Sequence record: OP870143.1
Source of the DNA: Escherichia phage vB_Eco_F22
Length of the DNA stretch: 64,000 nucleotides
Reading direction: 5' to 3' (one strand)
Part shown: piece after piece, positions 5,134-55,116 of the stretch
Layout of the letters: the number at the start of each line of letters is the position of its first letter
Numbering within the stretch: position 1 is the stretch's first letter
Notes under the pieces: model-generated
What the model was told of the DNA's origin: nothing
The model's database searches: none
Seen by the model: the letters and a program-made list of their open reading frames with translations, nothing else
Made by a program: the position numbers and the translations under genes

Positions 5134-5364
5134 ATGGCAGTATCCATTCAGGAAATCATTGTTAAAAGGCACAAGAGAAAATGGGAAAGCTATTACAAGC
5201 TAAAAGAGGTAATTAATGCTGCTTACCTTAGTGAAGAAGGTTATGCCTGGGTTGAACTAAATAGTGTATGGCCTTGGAGACATAACATCTATACAGACAG
5301 TTTAATCATATTCTACAGCTATGCGAATGAGCATAGTGGTAGGCGTCTAATTGCAAGAATGTAA
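5134..5364 (+). CDS. Hypothetical protein (76 aa)
   Basis: ORF directly downstream of hairpin motif at 5106. Confidence 0.5.
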   Translation: MAVSIQEIIVKRHKRKWESYYKLKEVINAAYLSEEGYAWVELNSVWPWRHNIYTDSLIIFYSYANEHSGRRLIARM

Positions 5365-5386
5365 TTAACTAATTGGAGAATATGCG

Positions 5387-6205
5387 ATGTACTCATCAAT
5401 AGAACATCAGAAGCAGCTTGAAGTCCTATTCAATAAAAATCAATTACTGCCTCGCATGAGGAAGGAATTCGAGGACTCCAAAGAAATTGACTTTAAGGCA
5501 TTCGCTGCCTATTTAGAAATTGATTATAAGCTGCTCATTGATGCAATGGTGCAGATTGCCCTACATAAACGTGCTGACATCCAGACTATGATTGGCTCTC
5601 TCATGAGTCACTCAGATGATGCTCAGTACATCGCTGACTGTCTATATAAGATGGCAGAGAATGACTGCTTCAACTATGACCCTACCATCGACAAATTCGG
5701 TGTTATCTATGAGATTAGTGAAGATGTTCAGATGGAACTGGAAGCATTCCAGTATCCATTACCTATCGTAAGTGCTCCTAAGCCTGTTCTGTGTAACCGT
5801 GATACAGGTTACTACGAAAGCAGAGGCAGCATCATCCTCAAGAAGAATCATCATGAAATGGACGTCTGCCTTGACCACATCAACCGTATGAACAATCAAC
5901 GTCTCTGTATTAACTGGGACGTTGCCAACTATGTAAAAGACTCTCGTCCTAACATGGATAAACCCAAAGAGGGGGAAACCCGTCAGGACTATGAGAAACG
6001 TGTTAAAGCCTTTGAGAAGTACAGTCGTACTGCTAAGGAAGTAATGGAGTTAGTAACTCAAGAAGGCAATAACTTCTCACTAGCACATAAGTACGATAAG
6101 AGGGGCAGAACCTATGCCTGTGGATACCATATCAATTTTCAAGGGACTTCATATAACAAGGCAGTGATTGAATTTGCTGATAAGGAGCTGGTAAACGATG
6201 ATTAA
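5387..6205 (+). CDS. Phage RNA polymerase II small subunit (N4 gp15-like)
   Basis: 272 aa, immediately upstream of the catalytic subunit; size and position match the N4 RNAPII heterodimer. Confidence 0.5.
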   Translation: MYSSIEHQKQLEVLFNKNQLLPRMRKEFEDSKEIDFKAFAAYLEIDYKLLIDAMVQIALHKRADIQTMIGSLMSHSDDAQYIADCLYKMAENDCFNYDPTIDKFGVIYEISEDVQMELEAFQYPLPIVSAPKPVLCNRDTGYYESRGSIILKKNHHEMDVCLDHINRMNNQRLCINWDVANYVKDSRPNMDKPKEGETRQDYEKRVKAFEKYSRTAKEVMELVTQEGNNFSLAHKYDKRGRTYACGYHINFQGTSYNKAVIEFADKELVNDD

Positions 6206-8177: not shown

Positions 8178-9011
8178 ATGCCAACCCTAAAGATTGCGTT
8201 TAATAAAACTACCAACGTTGCTACCGTGCTTGATTCAGGTGGCAGTGTTCCAGGTGGTTCCGTGGAAGTAGGTACTTTTGAACATCCAGATGCCACTTAC
8301 CCTGATAGCTTAGTTATCTATCACGGTGTTCGTGACCTGTTGTATAAACGTTCTGCTAAAAACCCTGCTGAAGAAGGCTTCTGGCCTGACAACATCGTGG
8401 ATATGCAATCGGTCACTATCGACATGCAAGCTACTCCACGACTGACTGTTGCTACCAAACTGCCTCGTGTAGTCTCTGCCATCGAAGGAGTAGATGTTAA
8501 CTGGCATATTGATGTAGCAGGTGGTAAAGCACCATTTACTTATAAGTGGCAATTCAAAGCTGATACTGCTGGTGCAGTATTCACTGATATTGATTCTGGT
8601 GATAACGCATCTGCTATCACTGCAACATTGACCCTTAGTAACGTAACAGCTGCTTCTGCCGGTACTTATAAAGTGATTGTTACTGATGCTAATGGAACCA
8701 CGGTAGAAGATACCTCGTTGCTGGCTGTAGGTTACTACGAAGCAAGTTCACTGGTAGCTACTCCTACTTCACTGGCTCTGTCTGTTGCTGAAGATCTCGC
8801 CGCTGGCAAGACTGTAACCATTGCTGCTATGCCTGTTGGTTCATCTGCTGGTACTTTGTCTATCAAGACTGCTCCAGATTCTGCCCGTGCTACAGCTACC
8901 ATTGCTGGTAACGTACTGACAGTTAAACCTGTGGCTGCTGGTGATGCTACTTCTGTTGTAGTTACCAACGGTACTGTCGATGTAACCATCGCTGTTACTG
9001 TTGCAGAGTAA
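8178..9011 (+). CDS. Ig-like domain protein, possible capsid decoration protein (N4 gp17-like)
   Basis: TYKWQF...TLTLSNVTAASAGTYKVIVTDANGTT resembles Ig-like/Big domain strands; position after the RNAPII genes matches N4 gp17. Confidence 0.45.
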   Translation: MPTLKIAFNKTTNVATVLDSGGSVPGGSVEVGTFEHPDATYPDSLVIYHGVRDLLYKRSAKNPAEEGFWPDNIVDMQSVTIDMQATPRLTVATKLPRVVSAIEGVDVNWHIDVAGGKAPFTYKWQFKADTAGAVFTDIDSGDNASAITATLTLSNVTAASAGTYKVIVTDANGTTVEDTSLLAVGYYEASSLVATPTSLALSVAEDLAAGKTVTIAAMPVGSSAGTLSIKTAPDSARATATIAGNVLTVKPVAAGDATSVVVTNGTVDVTIAVTVAE

Positions 9012-9063
9012 GGGTATCCCTTATTTGGGGTTATAAACCCCGAAAGGAAACCCTCAAGTTTGG

Positions 9064-9148: not shown

Positions 9149-9409
9149 ATGCGTAAAATTGCTATTGGATTCGGTTGTAGTGCTGTTACGGGCCTTATCG
9201 CTTATGCTGCCCACGTAATCTTGGGTATGTCACTGATTGACCTGACACCGGTCATGGTAGCTGCTATCGCAGCCCCACTATTTGGTATCGTAGTCTTTGA
9301 CTTTAAAGCATTCAGCCGTGCTGCTGCTGAAGTAAGCAATCTAATCCTGGGCCGACTTGGACATCGTTCCTTTGGTTCTGGTAGTCTATGCCGACCTCAT
9401 GGTCTGTAA
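9149..9409 (+). CDS. Small membrane protein (86 aa)
   Basis: ORF with predicted hydrophobic helices. Confidence 0.4.
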   Translation: MRKIAIGFGCSAVTGLIAYAAHVILGMSLIDLTPVMVAAIAAPLFGIVVFDFKAFSRAAAEVSNLILGRLGHRSFGSGSLCRPHGL

Positions 9410-32379: not shown

Positions 32380-32829
32380 ATGCAAATCGTTCTGAACCAG
32401 TCTGAAGTAGAAGCTGCTATTGAAGCTTATGTAAACGAACAAGTTAATCTTGCCGGGGACATTAATATCCTGGTGAATGCAGATGGTACTGCCACCATTG
32501 GAATCAATGAAGAGGTCGGTCATAGTGATGACACTCCCCCCGTGGTAGAGAAGAAGACTCGCCGTCCTCGTAAGAATCCACAGGAAGCCAAACACCGTCC
32601 AGTAGAACCGGAACCGGCTGTTGAGGATGAAGCTGAAGAAGAGGTAAAGGAAGAAGAAACCCAGACCTCTACTGGTGGTGTGAACGAGAGTTCTACGCCG
32701 GAAGCTGAAGAAGTAGTAGCTGAACCAGAAGCACAAGAAGAAGCTGTGCAGGAGGAAGTTAAGGCAGAAGAACCAGCAGAGAAACCTGCTGCGAAGCCTT
32801 CACTGTTCGCTGGCCTGAAACGTAGTTAA
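32380..32829 (+). CDS. Hypothetical protein with highly acidic Glu/Ala/Pro-rich C-terminal half
   Basis: 149 aa; C-terminal 70 residues are mostly E/A/P/V. Confidence 0.45.
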   Translation: MQIVLNQSEVEAAIEAYVNEQVNLAGDINILVNADGTATIGINEEVGHSDDTPPVVEKKTRRPRKNPQEAKHRPVEPEPAVEDEAEEEVKEEETQTSTGGVNESSTPEAEEVVAEPEAQEEAVQEEVKAEEPAEKPAAKPSLFAGLKRS

Positions 32830-33060
32830 TCTGGTAGGTGGCTCAGAAGCTGCTGCTAGGTGTGGTAGTGTTTATAGTCCTGATGCTACTACTAGTCAGG
32901 ATTATAGACGTGTCGGCTCCATACATAGCTTTTATCATCACTGTCATTATCCTGTGGAAATGCAGTGGTAAACACGGTGGTGACAAGCCGCCAGAATAAC
33001 AACAACCGAACCAGTGGACTTTAATACTCTCCGAAGTCCATTGGTTCAACCGGGGTTGAT

Positions 33061-33231
33061 ATGAACAAATTTACTATTCACTGGCTCAATGGAAAGGTTA
33101 GTTCTTTCATGGGTGGAGAACCTGCTGAAGGAAACAAAGCATTCCACATTGATTCAGAAGGCTGCAAAATCTTAATACCATATGCTTGGTATAAAGATGG
33201 TGAAGTTGAAGCATTAAAAAAGAGTAGTTAA
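33061..33231 (+). CDS. Possible small protein (about 56 aa) upstream of the structured non-coding region
   Basis: ATG..TAA read by eye; not in the ORF track. Confidence 0.25.
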   Translation: MNKFTIHWLNGKVSSFMGGEPAEGNKAFHIDSEGCKILIPYAWYKDGEVEALKKSS

Positions 33232-33999
33232 TATCGTGAAGGGTTCTGTCAGAATCCTTTGAGATAGGAACTCCTATCATAACCTTTCTTAACTTAATCT
33301 TTGCCGTATGGCACTGACGCTAGGGGTGGCCCCCCATCCGTCAGACAGACTATTTTAAGAATGGGTTATCTCAGAAAATGTAAAGCAACATTCGGGTTAA
33401 TCAATGGCCTCTCCTATAGAGGCCATTTCTGAATCTTAGGCTATATCCCAAAGGTTAATATCTTTGGGATAAGGCTTCAGATCCCTTATCAAACTAACCG
33501 CTCAATGTTGAGCATTTTAATCACATAAGCCCCTATATGGGCTGGGTTAAATGTCGGATAGCATAGCTACCTACAGCATCGAATTGTTAGGTCTTACATG
33601 CAATATAGGGTATAAAGGGAGGACTCGTCCCCTCCCTCCTATTATGACATCCTATCAATGAGTACACTTCAAGTGGTAGGCCTGCCGCTCTTGAAATTCA
33701 TCTGCAAAGCTGGAAGTGTACTCTTTGATAGTTTTCGTAAGCGATTATGCGGTTTTTTAGAAACGAACCAATAACATAAATGCAAACGATGATGTTGTTC
33801 TGATGGCAGCCTAATAAGCCAAGCGTCAGTCAGGAGTGAGTCGTCCTGATTATCAAACGACCGTGGAGTACTCCCGTCCATGTATTAGAAACGGGGGACC
33901 AATTACCAGTTGCACGAGATGGCTTGACATGTTCAAGTTTGGACTAAGTGTGACACCGCTAGATTGGAGGGCTGCTGCGGTAAGCTATAGACTCCAACC

Positions 34000-34270
34000 G
34001 GAGGTTCGAATCCTTCACTGGTAACCAATTCAAAGTAGCACTGCATAGAACGCGAAAAGGTACAGCGACGTTAGCCATACGGTATTGTGAGGTTCGAGTC
34101 CTCACCTATGAGCAGTGACGACTGCAACAGTGCTACTCTGAATTGGAAGAATTAAGACGGGTCTGGTGAAGTAGATGGGGTTCGATTCCCCCAGGTGGAG
34201 TAATCCACTAGCGTGCTTGGTGCACGAATAAGACTTAATACTGGTGGTTCGATTCCATCCCCCGTTACCC
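34000..34270 (+). other. Four tRNA-like T-arm modules (GGTTCGAATCC, GGTTCGAGTCC, GGTTCGATTCC x2) that do not fold into canonical cloverleaves
   Basis: T-loop motifs spaced 88, 88 and 67 nt; module 1 is followed by ACTGGTA-A-CCA whose 7-nt complement TACCAGT lies about 107 nt upstream. Confidence 0.3.
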
Positions 34271-34461
34271 AAAGTCGCCAGGTACTTATGGCAAATGGGT
34301 AGTAACGAACTAGTCATTCGTCAAACGCCCACCTAATTACGAGTCAGCAAGAACGCCTTCATTTAAACTTAAACAAAAAAGCTTAACGCAATAATTATGT
34401 AGGGGTATGTAAGGATTGCGAAGAAGGAGCCAGTTAGAGCCTGGCATGACTCACCCATTAT

Positions 34462-34535
34462 GTCCACTTAGCTTAGACTGGGAAAGCAACCGACTAATAA
34501 TCGGAAGGTCACTGGTTCAAATCCAGTAGTGGACA
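34462..34535 (+). tRNA. tRNA gene (74 nt); anticodon loop CTAATAA, anticodon tentatively AAT; CCA not encoded
   Basis: Manual cloverleaf: acceptor GTCCACT/AGTGGAC (7 bp), D-stem GCTT/AAGC with GG in loop, 4-bp anticodon stem CCGA/TCGG, T-arm ACTGG-TTCAAAT-CCAGT. Confidence 0.5.
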
Positions 34536-34769
34536 CCTATTCAGCAGTAACATAGTCCTGATTGCATAGCACTCTAAAGACAACACTGGTAAGACAGTCC
34601 AGTGGCTGCTAATGTATTGTTATTCCCCTCGACGGGAATTTCGCTAGTGAAGGTAACACTTAAAAATCCAAAGCTACGTCTTACTACTATCGGGCTATCA
34701 ACCCACGGTCGCTTAACCCTATAGCGGTAGTAGTTTGACGGCCTGCCTCGTTGACTGCGTTAAAGTCAC

Positions 34770-34811
34770 TAAGTCCCTCGGAGCCGTCACTCTGGGGGAC
34801 TTTTTTATTTG
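34770..34811 (+). terminator. Intrinsic terminator closing the structured non-coding region
   Basis: Stem AAGTCCC.../...GGGGACTT with about 15-nt loop followed by TTTTTTATTT. Confidence 0.5.
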
Positions 34812-34994
34812 AGAACTACTTATTGGACGATTCATATGATTGACCTAATCTTAACACCGTATGCCTATGAGGTAACGGATAACCAAGGACGTAAGTCTTT
34901 GGTGTTTGCAGGTAGCGTAGCCTATAACAACGCAGTCATGTTTAAATACAAACTCAAACCACTCTATGAGGCTAATAATGGCAACAGTAAGTAA
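34809..34994 (+). CDS. Hypothetical small protein (61 aa; TTG start in track, ATG at 34836)
   Basis: ORF starting inside the T-run of the upstream terminator; weak RBS. Confidence 0.3.
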   Translation: MRTTYWTIHMIDLILTPYAYEVTDNQGRKSLVFAGSVAYNNAVMFKYKLKPLYEANNGNSK

Positions 34995-36267: not shown

Positions 36268-36272
36268 AATAG

Positions 36273-36300
36273 AAGCCCCTCATTAGAGGGGCTTTTTTAT
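36273..36300. terminator. Bidirectional terminator at the convergence of rightward and leftward transcription
   Basis: Hairpin GAAGCCCCTC-ATTA-GAGGGGCTT flanked by A-run upstream and TTTTTTATTTT downstream, between + ORF end 36267 and - ORF end 36302. Confidence 0.7.
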
Positions 36301-36301
36301 T

Positions 36302-39300
36302 TTAGTTTACCAGGTTCATCCAAGGGTTCAGGTTGTGAGCACGTAGACCTTGCCCAAAGCCCCATGAGTAATCCAGCCCACCCTTAGCAGCAATGCTAAA
36401 GATGTTGTCCTGAATAGGCAGACCAACATTACCAAACATGGTAGGAGTTGGAGCCAGCATTGCCATTGCTGCATGCACCGGGTTATTACGAATCATGGAC
36501 ACTGCAACCTTAGCTGAACGAATCTTAAAGTTGTAGAACCACATCAAACCAACACTTTCCATATACCCACGGAAGCGACCTGGTAAACGGTCATAGTTAA
36601 CAAACTCTTCAGTTACACGTCCCAGTGCTTCTTCACGAGTCTTACCTTTACGCTGAGTCAATTCATCATAGATGATTGCTTTAGCGATAAAGTCAGAGTA
36701 CTCAACTGTCTTTTGGATACCCTGGAACAGAGCAGTATCCTTGGTGATAAGTGCATAACGTCCAGCAGTACGTACAGACTTAGGTAACTTATCTGCCAGC
36801 TTTTCCATATATTCGTGAAGTTTGCCTTCAGTAATCAGAATGTCATCACGACCGATACCAGCATCTGCAATTGAAGAGAACTCACCAGCTTCCAACAGAG
36901 GCCAGATGCTCATACGCTTATGGCTATCAGTAATGGACTGAATCTCAGCCTTAAGTTTACGAATCTGGTTCGGGTTAGTAGCTGCACGTAATTCTGCTTC
37001 TGCATCTACCTGACGCAGACGAGATTTCAGGTACTGGTTAATCTCAGCAGTTTTCTGTGGAATGCTTTTAGCAATGTTCTTAACCGGTACACCACGGGCA
37101 ACCATCTGGTAAAGGTTAGCCAAGAAGTTAACAGCAGGTACGACTACTGACTTAACTACAATCAGAGTCTTGGCTTCTTTAACTAAGTTTTGAACCAGGT
37201 TCTCACCACCCATTGTGTACTTATAAGCACGGTTGCCAAATACACCCAGCATAGCTTTCTTGAAGGTATCCAATGTTTCCGGGGACCAACGAGAATTACC
37301 AGACCAGGCATCACCTACAGAAGCTGCACGATAACCAAGTGCATCATTCAGCATGTCACGACGCACCCACAGTTCACCCTCACCAAACAGACTTTCTGCT
37401 TTCTGACGTGTTTCACTGTTCATTAGCTTAAGAGCATCAGCAGTTACTGGGTCCAGTTTAGAACCAAGAAGGTTAACGTACTGGGATTTATTAGAGGCAG
37501 ACATCTTAATGTCGTTCTCATACATGCTATGCAGGTTCTCAATCAACATATTGTTGAAACGCTGAGCCTTAGCTTCTTCCACCTGACGACCACGCCATAC
37601 ACCAATTGCACGGGCAAGGTGATTCTCGCCTTCAATGTGCTTCAGCATGTTAGGGTCAATGGATTGCTCATAGGCAACCACATTACCTTTGTCATCATAT
37701 ACAGGCAGAAGTGGTTCATTACCACGTTCACCACGAGCCAGTGCTTTAGTGATACGGTCTACGGAAGGCTTGTCAGTAATACGACCAGCTACCATCGAAC
37801 CCATCGTAAAGCCCGTACCGATGTCTACACCACCAGCAGTATTACGAACGTTTTGTAGGATACCCTGTGAGAAAGGAGCCTGTGCCTGTACCGGTGCGAA
37901 GTAGTAGCTGCGTGCTGGACCACGGTTAGCAGAGCTACCTTGATAAGTACCCAGACGTACATAAGATTTCTCAATCAAATCTCCAAACTGGCTATCTTCA
38001 GCAACAATCAGATTAACACCCTGTTTAGTCTCACTAGGGATATGCCCTTTGTACTGGTTCAAGGTTGCACGCATATCAGACTTGGCTTTAGCCATTTCAT
38101 CTTTACGCTGACCAACCAGGTAAGAAGTAGCAAAGTCCATTCCATCAACTTCTGTCTGAGCCAGAGAAGATAACATCTCACGGTCGGACTTGTTCATTGC
38201 TTCCAGTGCATACAGGGTAATCAGTTTATCCAGTTGAGCTACATCTACAGTAGAACGAGCAGCCTGACGTTCACCAAGCATACGAGAGATTGCAGTAGCA
38301 TTACGCAGCAGGTTATTACCGACTGTACCGTTAATCATGAACTGAGCCAGTTGCTTAGATTTACGACTAATAAGAGGCCAGTTACGACCAGCTTGTTTCT
38401 GCAAATCTGCTTCCAGCTTATTCACTTCACGGTCAACAATCTTCTGGTCAGATAGTAGGTCACGGATTTCAGCCAGAGACATAGTGTCACGCAGAACAGC
38501 TAAGTCAGTTTTACCCATGCCAGTGTGCATTGCTTTCCACTCATCGTTAGTCAGCTTACGGCTGAACTTAGATGCGATAGTGGTAGGCAGGTGTTCACGG
38601 AATTGCTGACGGTCTGCTTGTACCTGTGCACGAACTGCTTTAATCAAATCGTATACAGAAGCATTACTCTTAGTACGACCAGTTAAGTCATTAACCAGGT
38701 CATGGAAGGGTTGCCATACCTTACCCTGGTTCATTGCAGCCATAACACCTTCAGCTACAATTGCACCATTCTTCTCAGTAGCAATAGCAGCCACCAATTG
38801 TGCAGCATGGGCAGCACCTTTAACCAATGGATTCTTAGTATTAGCTGCAACTTCGCGAGCACTTTCTAAAGCACGAGTAGACAGTGCATCAATAGAATCC
38901 ACCAGATACTGGTTAGCACGATCAATAGCATTACCACTAGGAGTAGCAACGGAATCATAGAATGACTGTGCATTGAGGCTAGTCTGCATGATTGTCTGAG
39001 CCAGTGCATCCATACCTTCCTGTACGTTGGTAGCTTTAGTGTCACCTGCTACACGGGCATTCAAGCTAGACATTGCAGCAGTACCAATGTTAGTCAGCAT
39101 TGCATCAATGGTATTACCGGATTTCTTATCTGCTTTCATAACAGGAATGTTAGCCAGTACGTTACGTACCTCTTCACTTACCATTGCCAGACCAACAAAG
39201 GTAGGCAGTAAGGAAGAACGACCCTGTGCATCAAACTCGATATTGTTAGCACCCATGATGGTATCGAACTTCTGCTGTGCATAGTAACGGTCAGCAGGGT

Positions 39301-42300
39301 TGGTACTATCCGGGTCAGCCATGAATGCTTCAACGGTCAGATTCTTAGTAACGTGTGCATAGTATTCCTGTGCACGAGATAGAGCAGCCGGACTAATAGC
39401 AGCCTCAGTAGCCAAAGCAGCAACGATATTAGTGAACAGGCGTTGTTCCTGCATATTCATAGTGAAACCATGAGCCTGAACATCACGGGTTACTTTAGTA
39501 GCATTCACTACTGCATCAGAGAACTTACCTTTACGAATTACTTGTTGCACTGGTTCTGAACCAATGTAGTTAGTAATCAGCTTATCAAAGGTCTGCCCCA
39601 ATTCTTCCAGACGGGTATTGTCGCCATACGCCTTGTTATGGAACAAGGTAGTGTCCTTGGATACAGCAGCCGTAGGAGCCTGCCCACGCATAACTACGGA
39701 AGAGTTAAACAGTAAGCCAGAGAACATATCATCTGCATTAGCAGGAGCTTTCTTACGACCGAATACCAGACGCTTGATTGCTTCATACACAGACTGAACC
39801 ATAGTCTTCAGTGCAGTAGTCTTCTTCTGCTTACTAATTAGTTCACGGTTGGTTAAGCCCCAAGCCATGTATTCGTTCAGTGCAGCAGCTTTAGCCATTG
39901 CCGGTTCAATGAAGCCATTAGACAAGTGACCGTTAATGGTATTGAGTGCATCAGCATATGCTTCACGTACTGCCGGGGTTTCATCCTTAACATCCAGAGT
40001 ACGGAACTGGTTCATCAGGTCTTCAATATTCTGAACTGCTTCATTAGGAGTACCCTCATAATGAGCCAGTACAGATTCAAAAGTAGAAGCATGTACCAAT
40101 TCATGAACCAGAGTCTCTAAGGAAGGGGTAACTAAGTAGATGGTCTTATCATCAAAGTTAGTCCAGCCATATGCATTACCAGCTTCGGCAGCTTCAATAT
40201 CTTCCGGTGCTGGGCGAGTAATGTTCTTCTCAATAGCATAAGCATCCAGCTGAGCAGGAGTACCGTAAACAACCTTGTAGTCTTTAGCAGCAAGGGATTT
40301 CTGTACTTCTTTCAATACCGCTTGCTGTTCAGGAGACATCTCTTTAGCCAGCTTAGTGATAGCAGTATTAGACAGCAGACGTACACCAGACTTCAGTACA
40401 CGACCAACCTGTTCCATTGCTGGTACTTCTTTAACAGGTGTTTCTTCAGCAGGTACTTCTTTCACTGGTTCTGCTTTAGCAGCACGTACTGCATCACGGC
40501 GCTTATTTAATTCGGCATCAAACAGTTCGTTTAGCTTAGCTACTTGCTGGTCTACAGTCAGACCTTCCAGAGAGATTTTACCGTTGTTCACATAAGGAGC
40601 ACCTACAGCAGCCATCTGGTCAACAGTGGTCTGTACCTGGTTCATTACTTTGTGGCGAATATCTACACCTAAAGCAATGTTACGCAGATTACGTTCAATG
40701 AGGTTAACACCGGATTTCTCAATCATATCAATCTTATACTGCCTGTCTCCCTCAACACGACTGATATGGGAAAGCTGTTCAAAATCTAAAGCGGAACGAG
40801 CAATGTCATCAATTGTCTTATCTGACAACTTATTAAAGTCTACGTTCTTCATGAACTTAGAGAAGGAGTCATACACGTTCTTAATAGGATTGCCCTGCCA
40901 AGAAGTATAAACAGCCTCATTAGCTTTACGACTTGCATCAGTGATGTCATTGATACCAATGTTCATACCATCAAAGATTTTCAGGGTATTCTTCGGAGCA
41001 CCTTTCATAGTAGAAAGGGTCTGCATCATCATGCCATCACCAGTACCAATGGTCATAAATGGAATACCTGCAACACCTGCTTGTGAAGGAGCATAGATGC
41101 TCATTGGCACACGCATACGGTCGTCTAAGTTGGTAGCCAGTACTTGGTTAGCAACATCAGTATTCTCACTGCCAGCAATGTAAAAAGTCTGTGAACCAGT
41201 CTCAATCATTGGAGCCAGTGGAGACAGGGATTTCTGAATTTCATTCAGCTCTTCCTGTGTTAAGAAATCGCCCTTCTTCCAGGTTGGGTCTTTTTCTTTT
41301 TCTGCCAGTTTAGCCTGTACTGCTTGTTGGAACATATCCTGCAATACTAAAGACTGAATTTGAGTAGCCTTCTGCAAGTTCTCAGTGGAGTGCATCAGAC
41401 CTTCACCAACGGTGAACCGGATACTTTGTCTCATTGGTTCAACGAAGAAGTGCAACATGTTCTCTTGTAGGTTCTTAAGAGCATCACCAGATACAGTAAA
41501 CTCCTGGGGATCTAACTCACCAGTCAGAGCACCATCTACTTCCTTAATAAATAACTTACCTTTACGCTTAGCTGGAATCTTACCAGTCAGTGCTTCCATA
41601 GAAGTAAGGAAGGTATCCAGCATAGCCTGAGCATCTGCCTCAGACGCAGCCTCCTTACCAAACAATGCCATAGCTGGGGAAATGCTAGGGTCAGTAGCAC
41701 GTGCTTGTAGAACGTCACTGAGGCGTTCGTAGATGGCGTCAGTAATTGCACTAACCATCTTGCCAGCAATACCACGAGCACCAGAACCATAGATGGTAAT
41801 GGTCAGGGGGTTTTTAGCGATGCCACGTTTCAGGTCCAGAGTACCGTCTTCATTCAGGTTAAAGTCTTTAATGAACAGGTCCATTAGCTTCTGGAGATGA
41901 TCCATCTGGCTCATAACAGGAACGTTGTTACGGTAAGCACTACGTAATTCATTTAGATAGAATTGCAAACTATTGGTAGATGCTTCATACAGGTCAACAT
42001 TATCGTCGATAGAGCAATGTTCGTTCATCGTTTTACCAGCACGACCAAAGAACAAACCACCCTTGGCAGTATTCTTAATCCAATTTGGAGTGAACTTACC
42101 TCCAGTCATTAATACCATTGCGTTGATTGGGCCGTTGGTTACACCATCGGCTTCAACGTACAGAGGAGTATTAAAATTAGCACGGTTATCACTGTTCAGG
42201 TAACGGGCATATTCCATCAGAGCCATGAGAGCCACGAAGGATTTGTTATCACCCAAAGAGGTCTTCAGGATATCTACTGCATCTGTCGGTAAGTGCCCAG

Positions 42301-45300
42301 ACTTATCAAACTCAACCATCATATCAACAGCAGGTTTCAATTTGCCTTCCAGAGCTTTAGTCAACTCTTCAGACATAGCTTCACGGGACATTTTATGTAC
42401 CTTGATGCCTAATGCCTGAGCCAGTCCTAACTGGAAGTCAGAGAACGCTTGGCTATTTTCATTACTCAGGTCAATAGTAGAGAAGGTTGGCAGAATTGCT
42501 TCACGAACCAGCTTACTGGATTGTGGGTTGTTCTTACCAAGCATCTGCATACGACCTACTCGGGTCATGTTATAGCCATAGTGAATGGGGGTATCCAAAC
42601 CATTCTCTTGTTCTTTTAGATGATTAATTAAACCGAACAGAGAATCATATGCCATAGATACTGATAAGTTCTTACCTTCCAGTGATTTAGCATTATTTTT
42701 ATTCAGCAAATCAGGATTAAGAGTACCAGCACCCATTAGTTCCAGAATGCTGTCTCGACCCAATGCTTCATAGAAGTTAACCATCGGCATGTGTACACGG
42801 AACTCAGTAGCCTGTTCAGCTTTCAGTGCAGCTTTCTGTTCGGGGGTATTCTTAACAGCAGGATTACGTAACTGAGTTTGGGCCACGGAAGGAATGTCGT
42901 CACCAAAGTACATTTTCTCTTCCGGATTTACCAACACAGCTTCTTCAATTGCTGTAGGGAAATTATTAATAGGGTCTTTATCAGCCAACTTATTAATAGT
43001 GTACAGACCAATAGTCTTATTAGAGTCCGGGTCAATCTCAGACACATCCAGCATAGTCTCTGTAACTGCACCCATCTCAATGAGGGAAGACAGAATCTCT
43101 GTAGCCATTGCCACTGGAATGCCTTTTGTATAACCCAGTGGTGCATTAGGGTTACGATTCAAACCCCAATAAGATTCAATCTTCTGAGCCAGTGAGCTAG
43201 TAGCTTCGACCAGGGTCTGGGCATTCTCAAATTCAGCCAGAATACTTTCTGGTAACAAGGATGCTTCTACTCCAGTAATGGCAGCTACGTCTTTTATGTC
43301 TTTAATGGCAGCATTCTGTGCAGCAGTCAGTCGCCATTGCAGACCAGCAAGCACGGCAGTCTCTAACAACTGGTCATTGAACTTAAAGGTATCACCATCT
43401 TTTTCAACGATATTCAGCAGTTTGCCACCTACCCAACGGTTAGCTTCAGTACCTTCTGCAAAACGTTTACCAACGTTCTTATTAGCAAGGAACTTAGCCA
43501 GTCGTTCAGACAGAGTAGTCTTCAGTGTTTCCCCAAAGTCCATCAAATCTTGGTAACGTTCTAACACATCACCCGTGAGAGCGTTATTTTCTTTTTGAGT
43601 GAATGCTTCAAAGCGAGCAGCAGAAGACAGTGCTTGCTTAATATCAGCTAAAGGAGATTCAGAACCAATGGTACGGGACTTGGGTTCTTCTGGCAGGGTA
43701 AATGCTTTCAGGAACTGGTTCGGTGTCTTTTCATTGTTATAGACAGGGAACACTGTTTCCATCTCAGAAAGAGGTTTGCCACCTACTGTATAATCTGCTT
43801 TTAGCTGAGCCAGCGATACTTCATCTTTCTCCACGTTGTTAGTGTTACGGCCAGAGGTATCTACACCAACCAGAATCTGTGCATTATTGGCTTCAACGAA
43901 AGATTGAACAGTATTGAATTGTTCAGCGGTCAGCTTTTGATTATCAAACAGTTGTAGGGACACAAACGGTTGTTCACTGCCTTTATAGAAAGTAGAGCGA
44001 ATAGAACCAGTATCCAAAGACATATCACGATAGCCATCATGCCCAAATACGTCAGACAGGCTGATATGGTCGCCATTAGAACCAACCACAGTACCATCAG
44101 CAAACAACCACGGACTCTCTCTACGGTCACCACTCTTATTAAGAGTTTCCTGTGAAATGGTATTTTCTTTCACATAAGCATCTCTTTCAGATTCAGTAGG
44201 TTGCTCAATGGTATCCTCATTAGTGAGGGTAGCATCTACTGTTTCAGGCTTAGTAGTAGAAACTTCTTCTGTTTTTGGGCTAGTCTCCTTAGTAGGAGCA
44301 GTCTTATTTTCTACCACTGGTTTAGCTTTAGGCTGTACAGTAGTAGTGTCCTCTTGCACTGGTGCAGGAGTTTCATCAACCTGATTCACTGGTTCATTAG
44401 TCTGTTGAGACTGAGTGGCATCAAGACCACCTTGACGGAACTCTTTAACTACCTGGGCAGCAGGCTTGTTCAGACGTGAATCCAACGAGGTAACTTTCAC
44501 ATGAGAAACATTAAGCTCCGGGTAAGCCGTAGCAAGTGCATTAGCAATATCAGCTACGGTTTTGGCCTCCAGTCCTACTTGCTGTGCAAACTTAACAGAC
44601 TTGGTATCGTAAGGATTAACACCGAGGCCAGTACGACTACGTACCCATTCACGGGAAGGCGAGAGAGCCTGATAATGAACAGACTTATTCTTATCCGCAT
44701 TCCCCGAAATCAGATGCTCATTCAACGCTCCGACCTTATTCTGCATGTGCTGGGCGAACTTCATAAAGTCGCTCAGATAAGCGGAGGCCAAATCGAAGTT
44801 ACCAGAGTTATACGCAGAACGAATGCGTTTCGCATGTTGCAACGCAGAGTACTGTCCTTCATTAGAACGAGACTCGTCGGTTTTAATCTGTTTACTAACA
44901 ATGTCTTGAGGACGTAAGCCTAGTTCTTCTGCTTTAGCGTCGAACTCTCGTGCACCCTGTAACAAGGCAGCAGCAGATTGCAGGGCAGCACGTTGACGAT
45001 TCCCCAGTGTAATCTTACCTTCGCTTGCGTGCTTCAGAACCATGTTCACTGAATCTGCATCCAGTACTTCTGGAGATACATCAGCAGCCATAGCAATGTT
45101 GTTTGCTTGGGCTTGATTAGCTTCTTCAGTAGCTTTCAGCTTACCTGCTTCAGCCTGTTCCTGAATCATAGAATGGATGGCACGGAATGCACGAAGTACT
45201 TTAGGGGTATTCTGTACGTTAGCCATCAGACCAGAGAACTGGTCTACGATTGCAGCAGCAGGGGAACCCTGTTCCAGATTAGCCAGAGCACCCGGGTCAC

Positions 45301-47149
45301 GGTTAATGAAGCTATCCATGGACATGATGTTGTCATACATCTGGATTGCAGCTTCCATTTGAACGTTAGGGTCTTCGGCAGTATTAACCAGGTCAGCCAT
45401 CTTCTGAATAGCTTCTACACGGTTAGTGGAACCAGAAACAGCTTCACGGATTACTGGGTTAGCTTGTTCCAACTCTACCGGGTCGAACTTCATTGCCTGA
45501 GTTAAGTCAGCAGCATACTGGGTAGCAGCAGCTTTCTCTTCCGGAGAAATATCCATTGCATCTACTGCTTCCTGTACAGTTGCTTGTGCTTGTTCTGCCT
45601 GAGCAGCAGCTTCCTGTGCAGCAGCATTAACCGTAGCATCAGCTACAGGGGATGCTTGTTCATTACGCTTGGCAACTTCTTCACCACGTTGAACCAGAAT
45701 GTTAGTAAGAGGAGATGCAGCTTTTGCTAGTGTTTTACCAACCAGAGAAGCACCAGCCAGGGTAGTACGAAGAGTAGGGCCAGCAGCAGCACCGGCAGCT
45801 TTAACAGTTGCACCAGGGACTTGAGCAACTCCAGCACTACCGAAGCCATAAAGTGCACCAAGACCTGCTTGCTCACCAACCCCTTTGAGGGTGTCACGGG
45901 ATGCATCAACGTTTTCTTTGATTGCAGTATTCTGTGCGAACTGACCAAAGCCGGATTGAATACCTTCCTCTACAGTTTCACGCAGCATATTAGAACCAGC
46001 ACCTGCCAGTGAACCTACCTTAAGTGGGTTAAGTTCAAAGCGAGATACCAGTGGGCCGGTAGCAGCAGCAACTGGAGCAGTTAAGCCAGCAGCAATGATA
46101 CCTGTTTCAGATGCAGTCTGACGACGTGCTTCATCAGGAGATAAACCATCAGCAATATGCTGTTGGTAAACAGGAGACTTACTTGCCAGTTCTTGGTGGG
46201 ACATCTTCATGATTTCAGAAGCAGTCTGTTGGTATGCACCACCAGCTTCCATACCACCGATTGCAATAGCAGGTGCAGCAACACGACCAGCAGACAGTGC
46301 AACCTGTGCAGGACGTGAACCTAACCCAGCAGCTAAGGTAATACCCTTAACAGCTTTATCACCACCTACCATTACTTTACCGAGTGCAGATACACCACGA
46401 ATAAGTGGACCACCGGTAAAGAGGGAACCAACACCTTCACTCAGTCCGTCAGAGGCAGCCATACCATTATCAAGTGTATTAGCAACAGAATCGAAAGCAT
46501 CACGACCAATACGAGACAAGGAGGCAACCAAATCGTTCTCCCCATTTTTGATGTCTTGTTCATAAAGTTTCTGATTCTTTTGAGCAGAAATCTGGTTCTG
46601 ATTCTGAACAACCTTACGGGTAGCATTCAGTGCATCAGACTGTAGATTGTGTACGCCTTCATTCAACCAATCCATCCCGGAAGCAATGGTTGCCCCGGCA
46701 TTATCATTGACCAAACCTGTGCCAAGAGCAGCAATGCCCCCAAGGGTATTAGCAACACCAAGACCAACACCAGAAAGAGTATCGCCAAATGCTTCTGCGT
46801 TAGTACGTTGTTTAGATAAGTCCTGACGTACAACATCCGCAGCATTAGCTCGGCTATTAAGAATTTGTAGACCTTGCTCATTACCGTATTTATTAATGAT
46901 TTCTAATGGGGAGGCTTGAGTGAAATCTGCCTGAAGTGAACCTGGTTCGAATGCACCGATTCCAAGATTACCTACACGTCCGGTCTGGAGATTGTAAGCA
47001 TTCTCTGGGGTTAATTGGAAAGGGATTTGCCCTTGTGCAGCTTGCTTCTGAGAGGTTGCAGTAGAGACATCGACTCGCTTAGCATTAGTGATGCTGTCTG
47101 CGAAACCTGCCAGACGGTCAAATGTTGACATAGCATGTTTCCTGTTCAA
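36302..47149 (-). CDS. Giant virion RNA polymerase (N4 gp50-like vRNAP), 3615 aa
   Basis: Single uninterrupted 10.8-kb ORF; central T7-like palm motifs LYVEADGVTNGPINAM (A), KNPLTITIYGSGARG (B), KIFDGMNIG (C); first gene of the leftward block. Confidence 0.8.
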   Translation of the reverse strand: MNRKHAMSTFDRLAGFADSITNAKRVDVSTATSQKQAAQGQIPFQLTPENAYNLQTGRVGNLGIGAFEPGSLQADFTQASPLEIINKYGNEQGLQILNSRANAADVVRQDLSKQRTNAEAFGDTLSGVGLGVANTLGGIAALGTGLVNDNAGATIASGMDWLNEGVHNLQSDALNATRKVVQNQNQISAQKNQKLYEQDIKNGENDLVASLSRIGRDAFDSVANTLDNGMAASDGLSEGVGSLFTGGPLIRGVSALGKVMVGGDKAVKGITLAAGLGSRPAQVALSAGRVAAPAIAIGGMEAGGAYQQTASEIMKMSHQELASKSPVYQQHIADGLSPDEARRQTASETGIIAAGLTAPVAAATGPLVSRFELNPLKVGSLAGAGSNMLRETVEEGIQSGFGQFAQNTAIKENVDASRDTLKGVGEQAGLGALYGFGSAGVAQVPGATVKAAGAAAGPTLRTTLAGASLVGKTLAKAASPLTNILVQRGEEVAKRNEQASPVADATVNAAAQEAAAQAEQAQATVQEAVDAMDISPEEKAAATQYAADLTQAMKFDPVELEQANPVIREAVSGSTNRVEAIQKMADLVNTAEDPNVQMEAAIQMYDNIMSMDSFINRDPGALANLEQGSPAAAIVDQFSGLMANVQNTPKVLRAFRAIHSMIQEQAEAGKLKATEEANQAQANNIAMAADVSPEVLDADSVNMVLKHASEGKITLGNRQRAALQSAAALLQGAREFDAKAEELGLRPQDIVSKQIKTDESRSNEGQYSALQHAKRIRSAYNSGNFDLASAYLSDFMKFAQHMQNKVGALNEHLISGNADKNKSVHYQALSPSREWVRSRTGLGVNPYDTKSVKFAQQVGLEAKTVADIANALATAYPELNVSHVKVTSLDSRLNKPAAQVVKEFRQGGLDATQSQQTNEPVNQVDETPAPVQEDTTTVQPKAKPVVENKTAPTKETSPKTEEVSTTKPETVDATLTNEDTIEQPTESERDAYVKENTISQETLNKSGDRRESPWLFADGTVVGSNGDHISLSDVFGHDGYRDMSLDTGSIRSTFYKGSEQPFVSLQLFDNQKLTAEQFNTVQSFVEANNAQILVGVDTSGRNTNNVEKDEVSLAQLKADYTVGGKPLSEMETVFPVYNNEKTPNQFLKAFTLPEEPKSRTIGSESPLADIKQALSSAARFEAFTQKENNALTGDVLERYQDLMDFGETLKTTLSERLAKFLANKNVGKRFAEGTEANRWVGGKLLNIVEKDGDTFKFNDQLLETAVLAGLQWRLTAAQNAAIKDIKDVAAITGVEASLLPESILAEFENAQTLVEATSSLAQKIESYWGLNRNPNAPLGYTKGIPVAMATEILSSLIEMGAVTETMLDVSEIDPDSNKTIGLYTINKLADKDPINNFPTAIEEAVLVNPEEKMYFGDDIPSVAQTQLRNPAVKNTPEQKAALKAEQATEFRVHMPMVNFYEALGRDSILELMGAGTLNPDLLNKNNAKSLEGKNLSVSMAYDSLFGLINHLKEQENGLDTPIHYGYNMTRVGRMQMLGKNNPQSSKLVREAILPTFSTIDLSNENSQAFSDFQLGLAQALGIKVHKMSREAMSEELTKALEGKLKPAVDMMVEFDKSGHLPTDAVDILKTSLGDNKSFVALMALMEYARYLNSDNRANFNTPLYVEADGVTNGPINAMVLMTGGKFTPNWIKNTAKGGLFFGRAGKTMNEHCSIDDNVDLYEASTNSLQFYLNELRSAYRNNVPVMSQMDHLQKLMDLFIKDFNLNEDGTLDLKRGIAKNPLTITIYGSGARGIAGKMVSAITDAIYERLSDVLQARATDPSISPAMALFGKEAASEADAQAMLDTFLTSMEALTGKIPAKRKGKLFIKEVDGALTGELDPQEFTVSGDALKNLQENMLHFFVEPMRQSIRFTVGEGLMHSTENLQKATQIQSLVLQDMFQQAVQAKLAEKEKDPTWKKGDFLTQEELNEIQKSLSPLAPMIETGSQTFYIAGSENTDVANQVLATNLDDRMRVPMSIYAPSQAGVAGIPFMTIGTGDGMMMQTLSTMKGAPKNTLKIFDGMNIGINDITDASRKANEAVYTSWQGNPIKNVYDSFSKFMKNVDFNKLSDKTIDDIARSALDFEQLSHISRVEGDRQYKIDMIEKSGVNLIERNLRNIALGVDIRHKVMNQVQTTVDQMAAVGAPYVNNGKISLEGLTVDQQVAKLNELFDAELNKRRDAVRAAKAEPVKEVPAEETPVKEVPAMEQVGRVLKSGVRLLSNTAITKLAKEMSPEQQAVLKEVQKSLAAKDYKVVYGTPAQLDAYAIEKNITRPAPEDIEAAEAGNAYGWTNFDDKTIYLVTPSLETLVHELVHASTFESVLAHYEGTPNEAVQNIEDLMNQFRTLDVKDETPAVREAYADALNTINGHLSNGFIEPAMAKAAALNEYMAWGLTNRELISKQKKTTALKTMVQSVYEAIKRLVFGRKKAPANADDMFSGLLFNSSVVMRGQAPTAAVSKDTTLFHNKAYGDNTRLEELGQTFDKLITNYIGSEPVQQVIRKGKFSDAVVNATKVTRDVQAHGFTMNMQEQRLFTNIVAALATEAAISPAALSRAQEYYAHVTKNLTVEAFMADPDSTNPADRYYAQQKFDTIMGANNIEFDAQGRSSLLPTFVGLAMVSEEVRNVLANIPVMKADKKSGNTIDAMLTNIGTAAMSSLNARVAGDTKATNVQEGMDALAQTIMQTSLNAQSFYDSVATPSGNAIDRANQYLVDSIDALSTRALESAREVAANTKNPLVKGAAHAAQLVAAIATEKNGAIVAEGVMAAMNQGKVWQPFHDLVNDLTGRTKSNASVYDLIKAVRAQVQADRQQFREHLPTTIASKFSRKLTNDEWKAMHTGMGKTDLAVLRDTMSLAEIRDLLSDQKIVDREVNKLEADLQKQAGRNWPLISRKSKQLAQFMINGTVGNNLLRNATAISRMLGERQAARSTVDVAQLDKLITLYALEAMNKSDREMLSSLAQTEVDGMDFATSYLVGQRKDEMAKAKSDMRATLNQYKGHIPSETKQGVNLIVAEDSQFGDLIEKSYVRLGTYQGSSANRGPARSYYFAPVQAQAPFSQGILQNVRNTAGGVDIGTGFTMGSMVAGRITDKPSVDRITKALARGERGNEPLLPVYDDKGNVVAYEQSIDPNMLKHIEGENHLARAIGVWRGRQVEEAKAQRFNNMLIENLHSMYENDIKMSASNKSQYVNLLGSKLDPVTADALKLMNSETRQKAESLFGEGELWVRRDMLNDALGYRAASVGDAWSGNSRWSPETLDTFKKAMLGVFGNRAYKYTMGGENLVQNLVKEAKTLIVVKSVVVPAVNFLANLYQMVARGVPVKNIAKSIPQKTAEINQYLKSRLRQVDAEAELRAATNPNQIRKLKAEIQSITDSHKRMSIWPLLEAGEFSSIADAGIGRDDILITEGKLHEYMEKLADKLPKSVRTAGRYALITKDTALFQGIQKTVEYSDFIAKAIIYDELTQRKGKTREEALGRVTEEFVNYDRLPGRFRGYMESVGLMWFYNFKIRSAKVAVSMIRNNPVHAAMAMLAPTPTMFGNVGLPIQDNIFSIAAKGGLDYSWGFGQGLRAHNLNPWMNLVN

Positions 47150-53913: not shown

Positions 53914-55116
53914 TTACAGAGGAGCAACAGTCTTAATCAGAGCCAGACGTTCTGGACGTTTAACCAGGATACCGTAGTACCACTTGATGGAACTGAAGCC
54001 AGTCTCACCATACGGATCATTACGGTCAGCAGTTTCTCGACCAGGCATCTTAGTCATGATGGAGAACTTAACAGACTTACCATCAGTCTGGAAGCCAATG
54101 GTAGAGAAGGAGTCATCACCAACTACCAGCATCGGGAATACGTCGTAGTGTTCTTGACCACTAACCATAGAAGAACGATAACCTGGGTTAGTAGTAACCT
54201 GAGCACCAGCACCTGCCCAATGCAGCATTTCTGGAACCTGGATAATACGGAACTTGTCGATACAACCAATCTCACCATTCATCAGAGTACCAGCATCAGC
54301 ATAGTGCTGAACCTCGATGAATGCTTTGTTACCGAACAGGTCTTTCATCGCTTTCAGTTCTGGAACCAGTTCAGAACCAACGTACATTACACGAGTACCA
54401 CCAAGTACTTTGGTATCAGTAAGTTTAGAACCAGTGATGATAGTAGTCTGGGTCGGAGTACGGTTCTCAGTAAGAATCTGGTCAAGACGCATCAGGTTCT
54501 TATAAGAAACTACAGACGGGGTAGAACCTTCACCGGTGATGGTAGCATCGGAGGTAGCAGCACCTGCATACAGTACAGTACCAGCAGCAGCCAGCAGGTC
54601 TTTCTGGAGAACAGCTTCAGTCAACTGTACAGCACCGTTCATCAGTTCACGGGACAGGTGCTCTTTCAGTTGGTCGTCAGAATCAAAGTCCAGAGACTCT
54701 TGAGTAAATTCGTAGAAGAAACCGAACTTATGAATGGAACCTTCACGAGACAGACGGGTAAAGCCTACACGGTTAACACGACCACCATTCTCTGTCAGCA
54801 GAGGCAGTTTAGAAGTGATGTTACCAACGTCTCGGGAAGAACCATACAGGTTACCATTAACGATGGTAGCACCCTTAGCATCAATACCCTGGTCGTTGAT
54901 GTTCTTATCATCAAGCAGTGGGACGTACTCATACACCTTAACAGTCTTACCATAGTTCTTCGGCATGTTAATGGTGTTAGCCAGTGGCATGAAATACTGG
55001 TCTTTACGGGACTGAATAATAGCTTTCTTCAGCCAGTAATAGGTATTCATCTGGTCGGAACCAGCACCATCAATGCTAGATTTCTGGCCGTCAATTGGGG
55101 CGTTATAGTTTAACAT
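53914..55116 (-). CDS. Major capsid protein candidate (N4 gp56-like, 400 aa)
   Basis: Size and position (portal - small protein - scaffold-like - this gene) match N4-like capsid modules; strong hairpin directly downstream. Confidence 0.55.

Follow-up and report, generated by a model that had tools for sequence, protein, structure and literature searches.

A tRNA-Ile gene with the rare anticodon AAU in an N4-like Escherichia phage

In a 64,000-nucleotide stretch of the genome of Escherichia phage vB_Eco_F22 (sequence record OP870143.1; the whole stretch is called the window below) we examined the tRNA gene at 34462..34535 of the plus strand. It is a real, intact and canonical isoleucine tRNA gene with the anticodon AAU, i.e. 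with an adenosine at wobble position 34 (A34), which is a rarity among bacteria and phages. The reading which we prefer, at a probability of about 0.55, is that of a functional phage tRNA which would serve as an accessory decoder of AUU, with A34 unmodified and with isoleucine loaded by the host isoleucyl-tRNA synthetase (IleRS). No new kind of mechanism is needed for this. The gene is ordinary and already in print: by BLAST the same gene was found at ≥90% identity in 43 phage records, annotated as tRNA-Ile or as the ambiguous 'tRNA-Xle', and 'tRNA-Ile-AAT' is given in PMC11927229 (2025), so that gene and anticodon are on record. The annotation should read tRNA-Ile(AAU), not 'Xle'. The value of the gene is modest and is that of a natural test case on the avoidance of A34: a genus of E. 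coli phages maintains an Ile(AAU) gene, with compensatory changes in its stems, and offers a tractable phage-host pair. By its sequence, the source genome is that of an N4-like coliphage of the genus Gamaleyavirus. A 9-kb stretch around the tRNA was 91-95% identical to E20, Bas96, Mimir124, PhAPEC5, PhAPEC7 and the UE-S5a group, and it matched 161 phage records in total, with identities down to 60-80%.

The tRNA-Ile gene and its conservation

ARAGORN at default thresholds reported a single tRNA in the 64-kb window, a tRNA-Ile with the anticodon aat at 34462-34537. The Rfam family RF00005 (gathering score 29) matched with 65.0 bits (E=7.6e-12) over the full model (1-71) at exactly 34462-34535 (+), i.e. 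over 74 nt up to the discriminator A73. The sequence reads GTCCACT TA GCTT AGACTGGGA AAGC A ACCGA CTAATAA TCGGA AGGTC ACTGG TTCAAAT CCAGT AGTGGAC A. The 5' strand of the acceptor stem (GTCCACT, 34462..34468) pairs perfectly with AGTGGAC at 34528-34534 and includes C4-G69. The D arm (34471..34487) consists of the stem GCTT/AAGC, including U12-A23, and a 9-nt loop with G18 and G19. In the anticodon arm (34489..34505) the stem ACCGA/TCGGA contains C29-G41 and encloses a 7-nt loop, C32 U33 A34 A35 U36 A37 A38, with the anticodon AAT at 34496..34498; A27.A43 is the sole non-canonical pair in the Rfam alignment. The T arm (ACTGG TTCAAAT CCAGT, 34511..34527) has G53-C61. By inspection and in the Rfam alignment all core nucleotides were in place (U8, A14, G15-C48, G18 G19, G53-C61, T54-A58, U33 and A37). 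This is the build of a canonical elongator tRNA: a cloverleaf with stems of 7, 4, 5 and 5 bp that scores above the family threshold, a 7-nt anticodon loop with U33 and a purine at 37, and conserved tertiary nucleotides. CCT follows directly 3' of the discriminator A. A complete CCA is not encoded, so the host CCA-adding enzyme would need to finish the 3' end; phage tRNA genes usually are without a fully encoded CCA. A minus-strand Rfam match to 'Plastid-ycf2' across the gene appears to be the tRNA read antisense and was ignored.

The original prediction, made from the letters alone, had described a lone tRNA with a perfect 7-bp acceptor stem, a canonical T-arm, an A-A mismatch at the first pair of the anticodon stem and a loop CTAATAA with the anticodon AAT, and all of this was borne out. 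It had also considered that the loop was mis-registered. This was refuted because ARAGORN, the Rfam alignment by Infernal and published tRNAscan-SE calls for sister phages with the same gene (about 96% identical to the window copy; PMC11927229) agree on tRNA-Ile with AAT in a standard 7-nt loop. The prediction lies far beyond chance, and relatives conserve the gene. That A34 is rare in bacteria agrees with a published count in which ANN genes other than ACG make up 695 of 246,393 bacterial tRNA genes (bioRxiv 10.64898/2026.05.15.725136).

The identity of the tRNA was examined by its synthetase determinants. For bacterial IleRS these are A73, C4-G69, U12-A23, G16, U20, U21, C29-G41, G34 or lysidine-34, A35, U36, A37 (as t6A) and A38 (Giege and Eriani, PMC9976931). 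Present in the window tRNA are A73 (34535), C4-G69 (34465/34531), U12-A23, C29-G41, A35, U36, A37 as a predicted t6A site, and A38. The determinants C34 and U4-A69 of the methionyl- and C36 of the valyl-tRNA synthetase are absent. With the isoleucine set mostly present and those for methionine and valine missing, isoleucine is by far the likeliest identity, and the host IleRS most likely charges this tRNA.

The anticodon is fixed. AAT was found in 14/14 Gamaleyavirus copies fetched, and none of the reports on the genes of this genus takes up the oddity of A34. The copies labelled tRNA-Ile or 'tRNA-Xle' in PhAPEC5, PhAPEC7, Bp4, Uz-1, ECBP1, SP5M, UE-S5a/b, UE-M3/M6 and others are copies of this gene in the same position, with 96-100% identity; PhAPEC5 has G5.U68 where the window copy has A5-U68. 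For a conservation alignment the syntenic region was taken from relatives and yielded 10 copies, i.e. 8 distinct sequences, which are closely related (90-98% identical). Four pairs varied: 1:72 (G-C or G.U), 2:71 (U-A, C-G or U.G), 5:68 (A-U or G.U) and 29:41 (C-G or U-A, the latter in the variant of L009 and L005). Among unpaired positions two in the D loop and one in the variable loop varied, whereas the anticodon loop, the T arm, the D stem and the A27.A43 mismatch did not. All six stem substitutions retain pairing, and at 2:71 and 29:41 the changes are double, so that here base pairs were kept by compensatory change. Of the alignment cells 95% were paired, compared to 16-47% when the partners were slid by 1-3 columns, and the observed covariation score was reached by 12 of 500 shuffles. 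The structure is under selection, and the pair-preserving variation is moderate, not strong, evidence of this as the sequences are few and close. The substitution rate of the tRNA, 0.032/site, equals that of the upstream flank; the downstream flank had 0.079/site and many gaps. The expectation that the tRNA is better conserved than both flanks thus holds for the downstream flank only.

The original prediction had left room for a pseudo-tRNA. This is unlikely because AAT is invariant, every stem change keeps pairing and the tertiary positions are intact; the pair-preserving variation largely rejects a pseudogene. In addition, four T-arm-like hairpins nearby (34000, 34088, 34177 and 34243) belong to tRNA-like remnants which default ARAGORN and Rfam missed. 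These neighbouring elements decayed below detection while the tRNA-Ile stayed intact, a contrast which supports selection.

Codon demand and the reading of A34

Codons were counted in 67 open reading frames (ORFs; 19,146 codons) of the window. ATT, at 35.0/1000, is the fourth commonest codon; ATC stands at 16.5/1000 and ATA at 5.5/1000, or 3.7/1000 in late genes. ATT makes up 61% of the isoleucine codons overall and 69% in the leftward block of virion RNA polymerase and late genes, and ATT/(ATT+ATC) is 0.84-0.92 in most large late ORFs. Among the eight U/C-ending codon pairs the preference for U is highest in TGT/TGC (0.74) and second in ATT/ATC (0.68). The AAU tRNA matches this codon bias. 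In E. coli ATT and ATC are about equal overall, ATC is favoured in highly expressed genes, and the major tRNA-Ile1(GAU) reads AUU by G.U wobble. Of the comparison between phage and likely host which the original prediction had proposed, the phage half was computed and came out ATT-rich; the host half is taken from standard codon tables. One late ORF of 400 aa, 53914-55116(-), had 12 ATT and 12 ATC, unlike its neighbours. It is perhaps the structural gene with the highest expression, adapted to the host tRNA.

How would AAU be read in E. coli? Direct data on AAU in this host come solely from engineered tRNAs. In the study of Schmitt et al. (2024, PMC11066159) an orthogonal tRNA with an archaeal tRNA-Tyr body received 15 different ANN anticodons, set in an anticodon loop identical to that of tRNA-Arg2, the natural substrate of TadA. 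Inosine was formed with ACG, AUG and AAG only (ANG), not with AAU, and any change of the loop abolished modification. The AAU tRNA decoded AUU at 4.5%, AUC at 0.43%, i.e. about ten-fold less, and AUG at 0.27%, and AUA was below detection. Raval et al. (2026, bioRxiv 10.64898/2026.05.15.725136) expressed every ANN tRNA in E. coli from plasmid-borne, mutated host genes and found them to be matured and active. Cells over-expressing Ile-tRNA(AAU) grew faster and to a higher yield in at least two media, and the predicted mistranslation load was low. According to this preprint E. coli broadly tolerates A34 tRNAs or even benefits from them, although they are almost absent from genomes. The engineered AAU tRNAs share anticodon and host with the phage tRNA and were AUU-selective, free of detectable inosine and tolerated or mildly beneficial. 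They are artificial, whereas the window tRNA is a natural gene kept in a virus.

No zinc motif of a deaminase ([HC][AVSP]E...PCxxC) was found in six frames of the 64-kb window, with about 8 kb of the genome lying outside, and a phage-encoded tRNA deaminase was rejected on the lack of this CDA-fold motif in the window. The loop is not that of a TadA substrate either, which needs A34 C35 G36 (with ANG tolerated); positions 35 and 36 of the window tRNA are A and U. The idea of the original prediction that the tRNA needs A34 modification is therefore unsupported, and with no inosine on AAU in E. coli (PMC11066159) and no deaminase motif, an unmodified A34 is the best-supported expectation. By analogy with the engineered tRNAs it should read AUU by Watson-Crick pairing, AUC weakly and AUA not at all.

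We infer the following course. The tRNA would be transcribed with the rightward early/middle gene block and processed by host enzymes, including addition of the 3'-terminal A, and the host IleRS would load isoleucine. A34 would be left as it is and pair with U3 of AUU, with AUC read about 10x less. The benefit would lie in extra decoding capacity for the preferred isoleucine codon of the phage, which host tRNA-Ile1(GAU) reads only via G.U wobble.

Several points weigh against this. First, the host already has an abundant tRNA which reads AUU. The ATT bias in the same gene neighbourhood is 0.50-0.68 in relatives with the tRNA and 0.57-0.76 in those without it, i.e. tRNA presence and ATT bias are not linked among relatives. 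The tRNA makes use of the bias without driving it, and any benefit must be small. Second, the IleRS determinant at position 34 (G or lysidine) is replaced by A, and the D-loop determinants G16, U20 and U21, which serve isoleucylation and editing, are missing: by our own numbering the loop AGACUGGGA has A16, G20 and A21. Charging could therefore be inefficient or editing altered. Third, the substitution rate is no lower than that of the upstream flank, and among relatives so close conservation alone is weak evidence. Fourth, as judged from sequence comparison, the gene is dispensable; it is absent from G7C, EC1-UPM, PGN829.1 and PD205, and other RNA is present in pSb-1 and Bas96. Finally, inosine was inferred on a Phe-tRNA(AAA) in its native E. 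coli body (Ile was not tested and phages are unmentioned in that work; bioRxiv 10.64898/2026.05.15.725136), so AAU might be deaminated in a natural tRNA body.

The last point leads to another reading, in which A34 is converted to inosine (I34) in the infected cell, either off-target by host TadA or by an unrecognised phage enzyme. IAU would read AUU, AUC and AUA without TilS. The anticodon arm resembles that of the AUA-reading tRNA-Ile2, and I34 would retain AUA decoding after loss of C34. Further, the loop has C32, U33, A37 and A38 in common with tRNA-Arg2, and the preprint on Phe-tRNA(AAA) argues that TadA is more flexible than thought (bioRxiv 10.64898/2026.05.15.725136). However, AAU in a loop identical to that of Arg2 carried no detectable inosine in E. 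coli and did not read AUA (PMC11066159), positions 35 and 36 are not C and G, the window has no deaminase zinc motif, and AUA is not in special demand. We regard I34 in this tRNA as rather improbable. The cytosolic tRNA-Ile(AAU) of eukaryotes has the same genomic anticodon and amino acid and is quantitatively converted to I34 by ADAT2/ADAT3; there, I34 is a determinant for IleRS (PMC9976931). Unlike it, the window tRNA has a body of bacterial type, and the host has only the homodimeric TadA, the tested specificity of which excludes AAU (PMC11066159). Natural A34 tRNAs other than Arg(ACG) are also found in Lactobacillales, Leuconostocaceae and Mollicutes, namely Leu(AAG) and Thr(AGU). Like the phage tRNA these are rare ANN tRNAs in AT-rich genomes which prefer U-ending codons. 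They serve four-fold boxes, in which superwobble is harmless, whereas the box of Ile(AAU) is shared with Met (AUG), and some of them carry I34 made by the organism's own TadA.

Ancestry of the gene and exchange in its slot

Outside the genus, the closest matches by BLAST against all phage records were the Aeromonas T4-like phage AsSzw2 (79.7%) and ileX/ileZ of Stx phages (78.9%), followed by tRNA-Ile genes of T4-like Enterobacter, Klebsiella and Cronobacter phages. BLAST against E. coli genomes returned prophage and plasmid tRNA-Ile genes. All non-genus matches fetched have CAT, i.e. they are of the lysidine-dependent tRNA-Ile2 type. The anticodon arms of the window tRNA (A ACCGA CTAATAA TCGGA) and of AsSzw2 tRNA-Ile2(CAT) (A ACCGA CTCATAA TCGGT) are identical at 15 of 17 positions and differ at 34 and 43 only; in AsSzw2 an A-U pair takes the place of the A.A mismatch which A43 makes in the window. 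The arm of E. coli tRNA-Ile1, CACCC CTGATAA GGGTG, is quite unlike it. With tRNA-Ile2(CAU) (ileX/ileY, 933W ileX/ileZ and those of T4-like phages; 77-80% identical) the window tRNA shares A73, C4-G69 and the CU-N-AUAA loop. These data suggest descent from a tRNA-Ile2 gene by C34->A. The ancestry rests on unbiased BLAST and the 15/17 match of the arm and is suggestive only. A proof by full-length similarity failed, since identity outside the arm is generic and amounts to 75-80% even with Cys and Arg tRNAs.

In tRNA-Ile2, C34 is changed to lysidine by TilS. The window tRNA, with AAU instead of CAU, is a relative of this group by sequence and not a member. TilS acts on cytidine (PMC9976931), thus lysidine cannot form on A34; the tRNA should be TilS-independent and should not read AUA. 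An exchange of C34 for A in its probable ancestor would have freed it from TilS and moved its codon from AUA to AUU. This also bears on the idea that the tRNA still decodes the rare AUA as do its nearest relatives, the tRNA-Ile2(CAU) of Stx prophages and T4-like phages. A pairing of A34 with A3 is not tolerated: in E. coli an AAU tRNA read AUA at a level below detection (PMC11066159). Lysidine is precluded, and phages in need of AUA use CAT or TAT on the same arm. Unless I34 forms, decoding of AUA is effectively refuted, and we give it next to no weight.

As a further control, the arm core CCGACT-N-ATAATCGG was searched in viral tRNAs, where it occurs with all four wobble bases. Among tRNAs predicted in IMG/VR it carried C34 in at least 112, T34 in at least 58, G34 in 28 and A34 in 21 cases. 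The IMG/VR counts show no excess of A34 relative to T34 or G34 on this core; A34 recurs but is the least common. Beyond Gamaleyavirus, viral contigs, some of them from jumbo phages (IMG/VR loci L031, L033, L035, L040, L074 and others), carry Ile(AAT) with the same arm core on at least four further, unrelated tRNA bodies, and it is also present in two bacterial genome contigs, L142 (Pasteurellaceae) and L198. In unrelated viral contigs it is sometimes part of an array that also has Ile(TAT) or Ile(GAT), which is what one would expect of a working isoacceptor. Possibly, though at even longer odds than deamination, A34 on a body of tRNA-Ile2 type is a viral strategy which recurs in several phage lineages and does away with the need for TilS and TadA, yielding a pure Watson-Crick reader of AUU or, if deaminated, an IAU for all isoleucine codons. 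If so, this would be the first natural bacterial-virus system for studying the near-universal avoidance of A34, and in the deaminated form a second tRNA would be a natural substrate of E. coli TadA or of an unknown phage factor.

The gene occupies what, from comparison of relatives, is a swap site between fixed flanks. The conserved 5' flank (34427..34461, +; GAGCCAGTTAGAGCCTGGCATGACTCACCCATTAT) contains a hairpin, GCCAG-7nt-CTGGC, and is kept in genomes which carry another cassette; it may be a promoter or a processing signal. The conserved 3' flank (34537..34760, +; CAGCAGTAACATAGTCCTGATTGCATAGCAC...) is also present in G7C, which lacks the tRNA; the G7C contig (L014) is 97% identical over 34537-34760. 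Both flanks were matched with the tRNA absent in G7C, EC1-UPM, PGN829.1 and PD205. In G7C (L014 9569-9696) the flanks ...GGCATGRCTCACCYATT and CAGCAGTAACATAGTCC... enclose an unrelated non-tRNA cassette of about 127 nt with a 12-bp terminal stem. As the slot is filled by another RNA cassette in G7C and others, the tRNA-Ile is dispensable. In pSb-1 (L018 9252-9336) and Bas96 (L022 2218-2302) the slot holds an 85-nt tRNA-like RNA. Its acceptor stem and T arm are those of the tRNA-Ile; the D arm is different and the anticodon arm is expanded to 30 nt (CAGGAAAGCTTCGAGAGAACAAGGTGTCTG). It scored 54 bits in Rfam, was not called by ARAGORN and is annotated as 'tRNA-Val' in Bas96.

An additional tRNA-like gene lies immediately upstream of the tRNA-Ile in UE-S5a, IME11, ST4 and nithesis (L025, nithesis, 2083-2155; L002 4736-4811; L012 9416-9491; L024 2083-2155); the window copy is without this gene of the UE/IME11 group. 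Its fold is a clean cloverleaf, but the anticodon loop has 6 nt (AAACCA); it scores 40.7 bits in Rfam and is labelled tRNA-OTHER, Undet or Thr. The more distant Moo19 and L013 have ordinary tRNA arrays, Tyr/Asn/Pro/Gln and, in L013, Tyr/Asn/Asp/Gly. Both contain tRNA-Ile(GAT) cores (L023, Moo19, ~1962-2034; L013 ~9264-9337) with broken or truncated acceptor stems, which match the Rfam model over 8-63 only and have anticodon arms of the E. coli tRNA-Ile1 type. In Moo19 the 3' part of this core and the downstream flank are homologous to the 3' part and flank of the window tRNA-Ile.

Such a slot, in which unrelated small structured RNAs swap between fixed flanks, raises the question whether the tRNA decodes at all. 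It may be a near-neutral passenger, a tRNA-Ile2 disabled by C34->A and not yet decayed, or a tRNA-shaped RNA kept for another purpose, e.g. as a decoy for a host tRNA-targeting enzyme, as a non-substrate ligand of TilS or IleRS, or as a recombination or processing module of the cassette site. This is compatible with the non-canonical neighbours in relatives (the 6-nt anticodon loop and the 85-nt form), with several losses of the gene, with conservation no better than that of the upstream flank and with the missing correlation to codon usage. However, no stem substitution breaks a pair, two pairs changed on both sides in a compensatory manner, and the anticodon loop does not vary. Had the gene been disabled in the ancestor of the genus, disruptive changes like those of the neighbouring remnants would be expected. 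The tRNA has kept IleRS identity elements, and in viral contigs Ile(AAT) is seen on at least five tRNA bodies unrelated to each other, in some cases within isoacceptor arrays. As to a decoy, we know of no E. coli anticodon nuclease specific for tRNA-Ile. Taken together we consider a non-decoding RNA unlikely, at a chance of perhaps one in four, and prefer the accessory AUU decoder.

An ssrA-like tag element and the genomic setting

About 650 nt upstream of the tRNA the window contains a conserved unannotated RNA element (~33712-33900, +), a by-product of this analysis which is more consequential than the tRNA itself. Rfam gave a sub-threshold match to permuted tmRNA at 33692-33814 (38.8 bits compared to a gathering score of 47; E=1.5e-5). 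The 3' part of this match reads GCA AAC GAT GAT GTT GTT CTG ATG GCA GCC TAA TAA, i.e. ANDDVVLMAA followed by two stops, with the tag frame at 33782-33814 and the second stop at 33815-33817. The ssrA tag of E. coli is ANDENYALAA. Both have equal length, start with AND and end with AA and a double stop. An in-frame stop is located seven codons upstream of the tag, and the frame has no ATG, GTG or TTG start. With its threshold lowered to 80%, ARAGORN reported a permuted tmRNA bearing ANDDVVLMAA.

The element is better conserved than its flanks across N4-like relatives, and the tag alleles there are ssrA-like: ANDDVVLMAA with the synonymous ends GCA GCC, GCG GCG or GCT GCT, ANDNVVLMAA, ANEEAYLMVA and ANNETYLMVA. 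Homologues were found in 230 phage records, which are of unrelated types and in almost all cases lack an annotation of the element, and P1-like plasmids carry it as well. In E. coli it was matched at 705 places, spread over 657 of 5,426 genomes and mostly on plasmids; the element is therefore not the host ssrA gene. In four of the four distant lineages checked the tag frame was retained. The P1 tag, ANDDLMMVAA, lies just after the annotated 'dicF-like region' and upstream of the P1 tRNA genes; phiMAM1 has ANDNAYLMVA and Sa179lw ANDDVVLMAA. HK620 carries ANEEMYLAVA in its late leader, where qut and the terminator flank it. Some 250 nt further downstream this leader has a motif homologous to the expanded arm CAGGAAAGCTTCGAGAGAACAAGGTGTCTG of the 85-nt RNA of pSb-1 and Bas96. 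A convincing tRNA-like domain adjoining the tag element was not found; the candidate in the window, 33904-34027, ends with ACCA and has C3-G70, while alanine charging requires G3.U70. Literature searches on phage tmRNA-like RNAs, extended to supplements of the tmRNA database paper, turned up nothing on enterobacterial phages. From its sequence the element is possibly a tmRNA mimic or the coding piece of a tmRNA.

Between the tag element and the tRNA-Ile lie tRNA-like remnants on the plus strand. In the candidate at 33904-34027 the acceptor stem, of 7 bp, is TACCAGT/ACTGGTA, the T arm is GGAGG-TTCGAAT-CCTTC, and the terminal A-CCA is encoded; the other T-arm-like hairpins are at 34088-34104, 34177-34191 and 34243-34259. 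At the 80% threshold ARAGORN called a weak Ser(gga), a Leu(cag) and one undetermined tRNA here. Mosaic-like, the stretch is made up of modules which some relatives have and others lack. In sister phages, ARAGORN and tRNAscan-SE call a second A34 tRNA, 'tRNA-Cys(ACA)', and together with a 'tRNA-Ala(CGC)' it flanks the tag element (L011, ECBP1, 8983-9061 and 8620-8691; L002, UE-S5a, 3900-3979). Both score below the Rfam tRNA threshold. As Cys(ACA) is also absent from the window, we gave little weight to it as a second case that would make a pattern of A34.

The tRNA is situated near the end of the rightward gene block, within the ORF-poor stretch 32829-34966 and about 235 nt upstream of an intrinsic terminator at 34771..34802 (+). 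This is a strong hairpin of 13 bp, 7 of them G-C, followed by TTTTATTT. In PhAPEC5 a terminator is annotated at the equivalent position, and the hairpin likely is the end of the transcription unit which holds the tRNA. A search upstream of the tRNA with a tool that covers sigma-70-type and not N4-type promoters yielded three sigma-70-type candidates compared to 6.7 expected from shuffled sequence. In a distant N4-like contig (L015) sub-threshold Rfam matches to group I introns (30-33 bits; gathering score 50) were seen at 4731-4958 and 5191-5483, upstream of the SSB gene. In the window the 3615-aa ORF 36302-47149(-) is the virion RNA polymerase, and another terminator-like hairpin, bidirectional and at 36271-36296, is placed exactly between this gene and the convergent rightward block.

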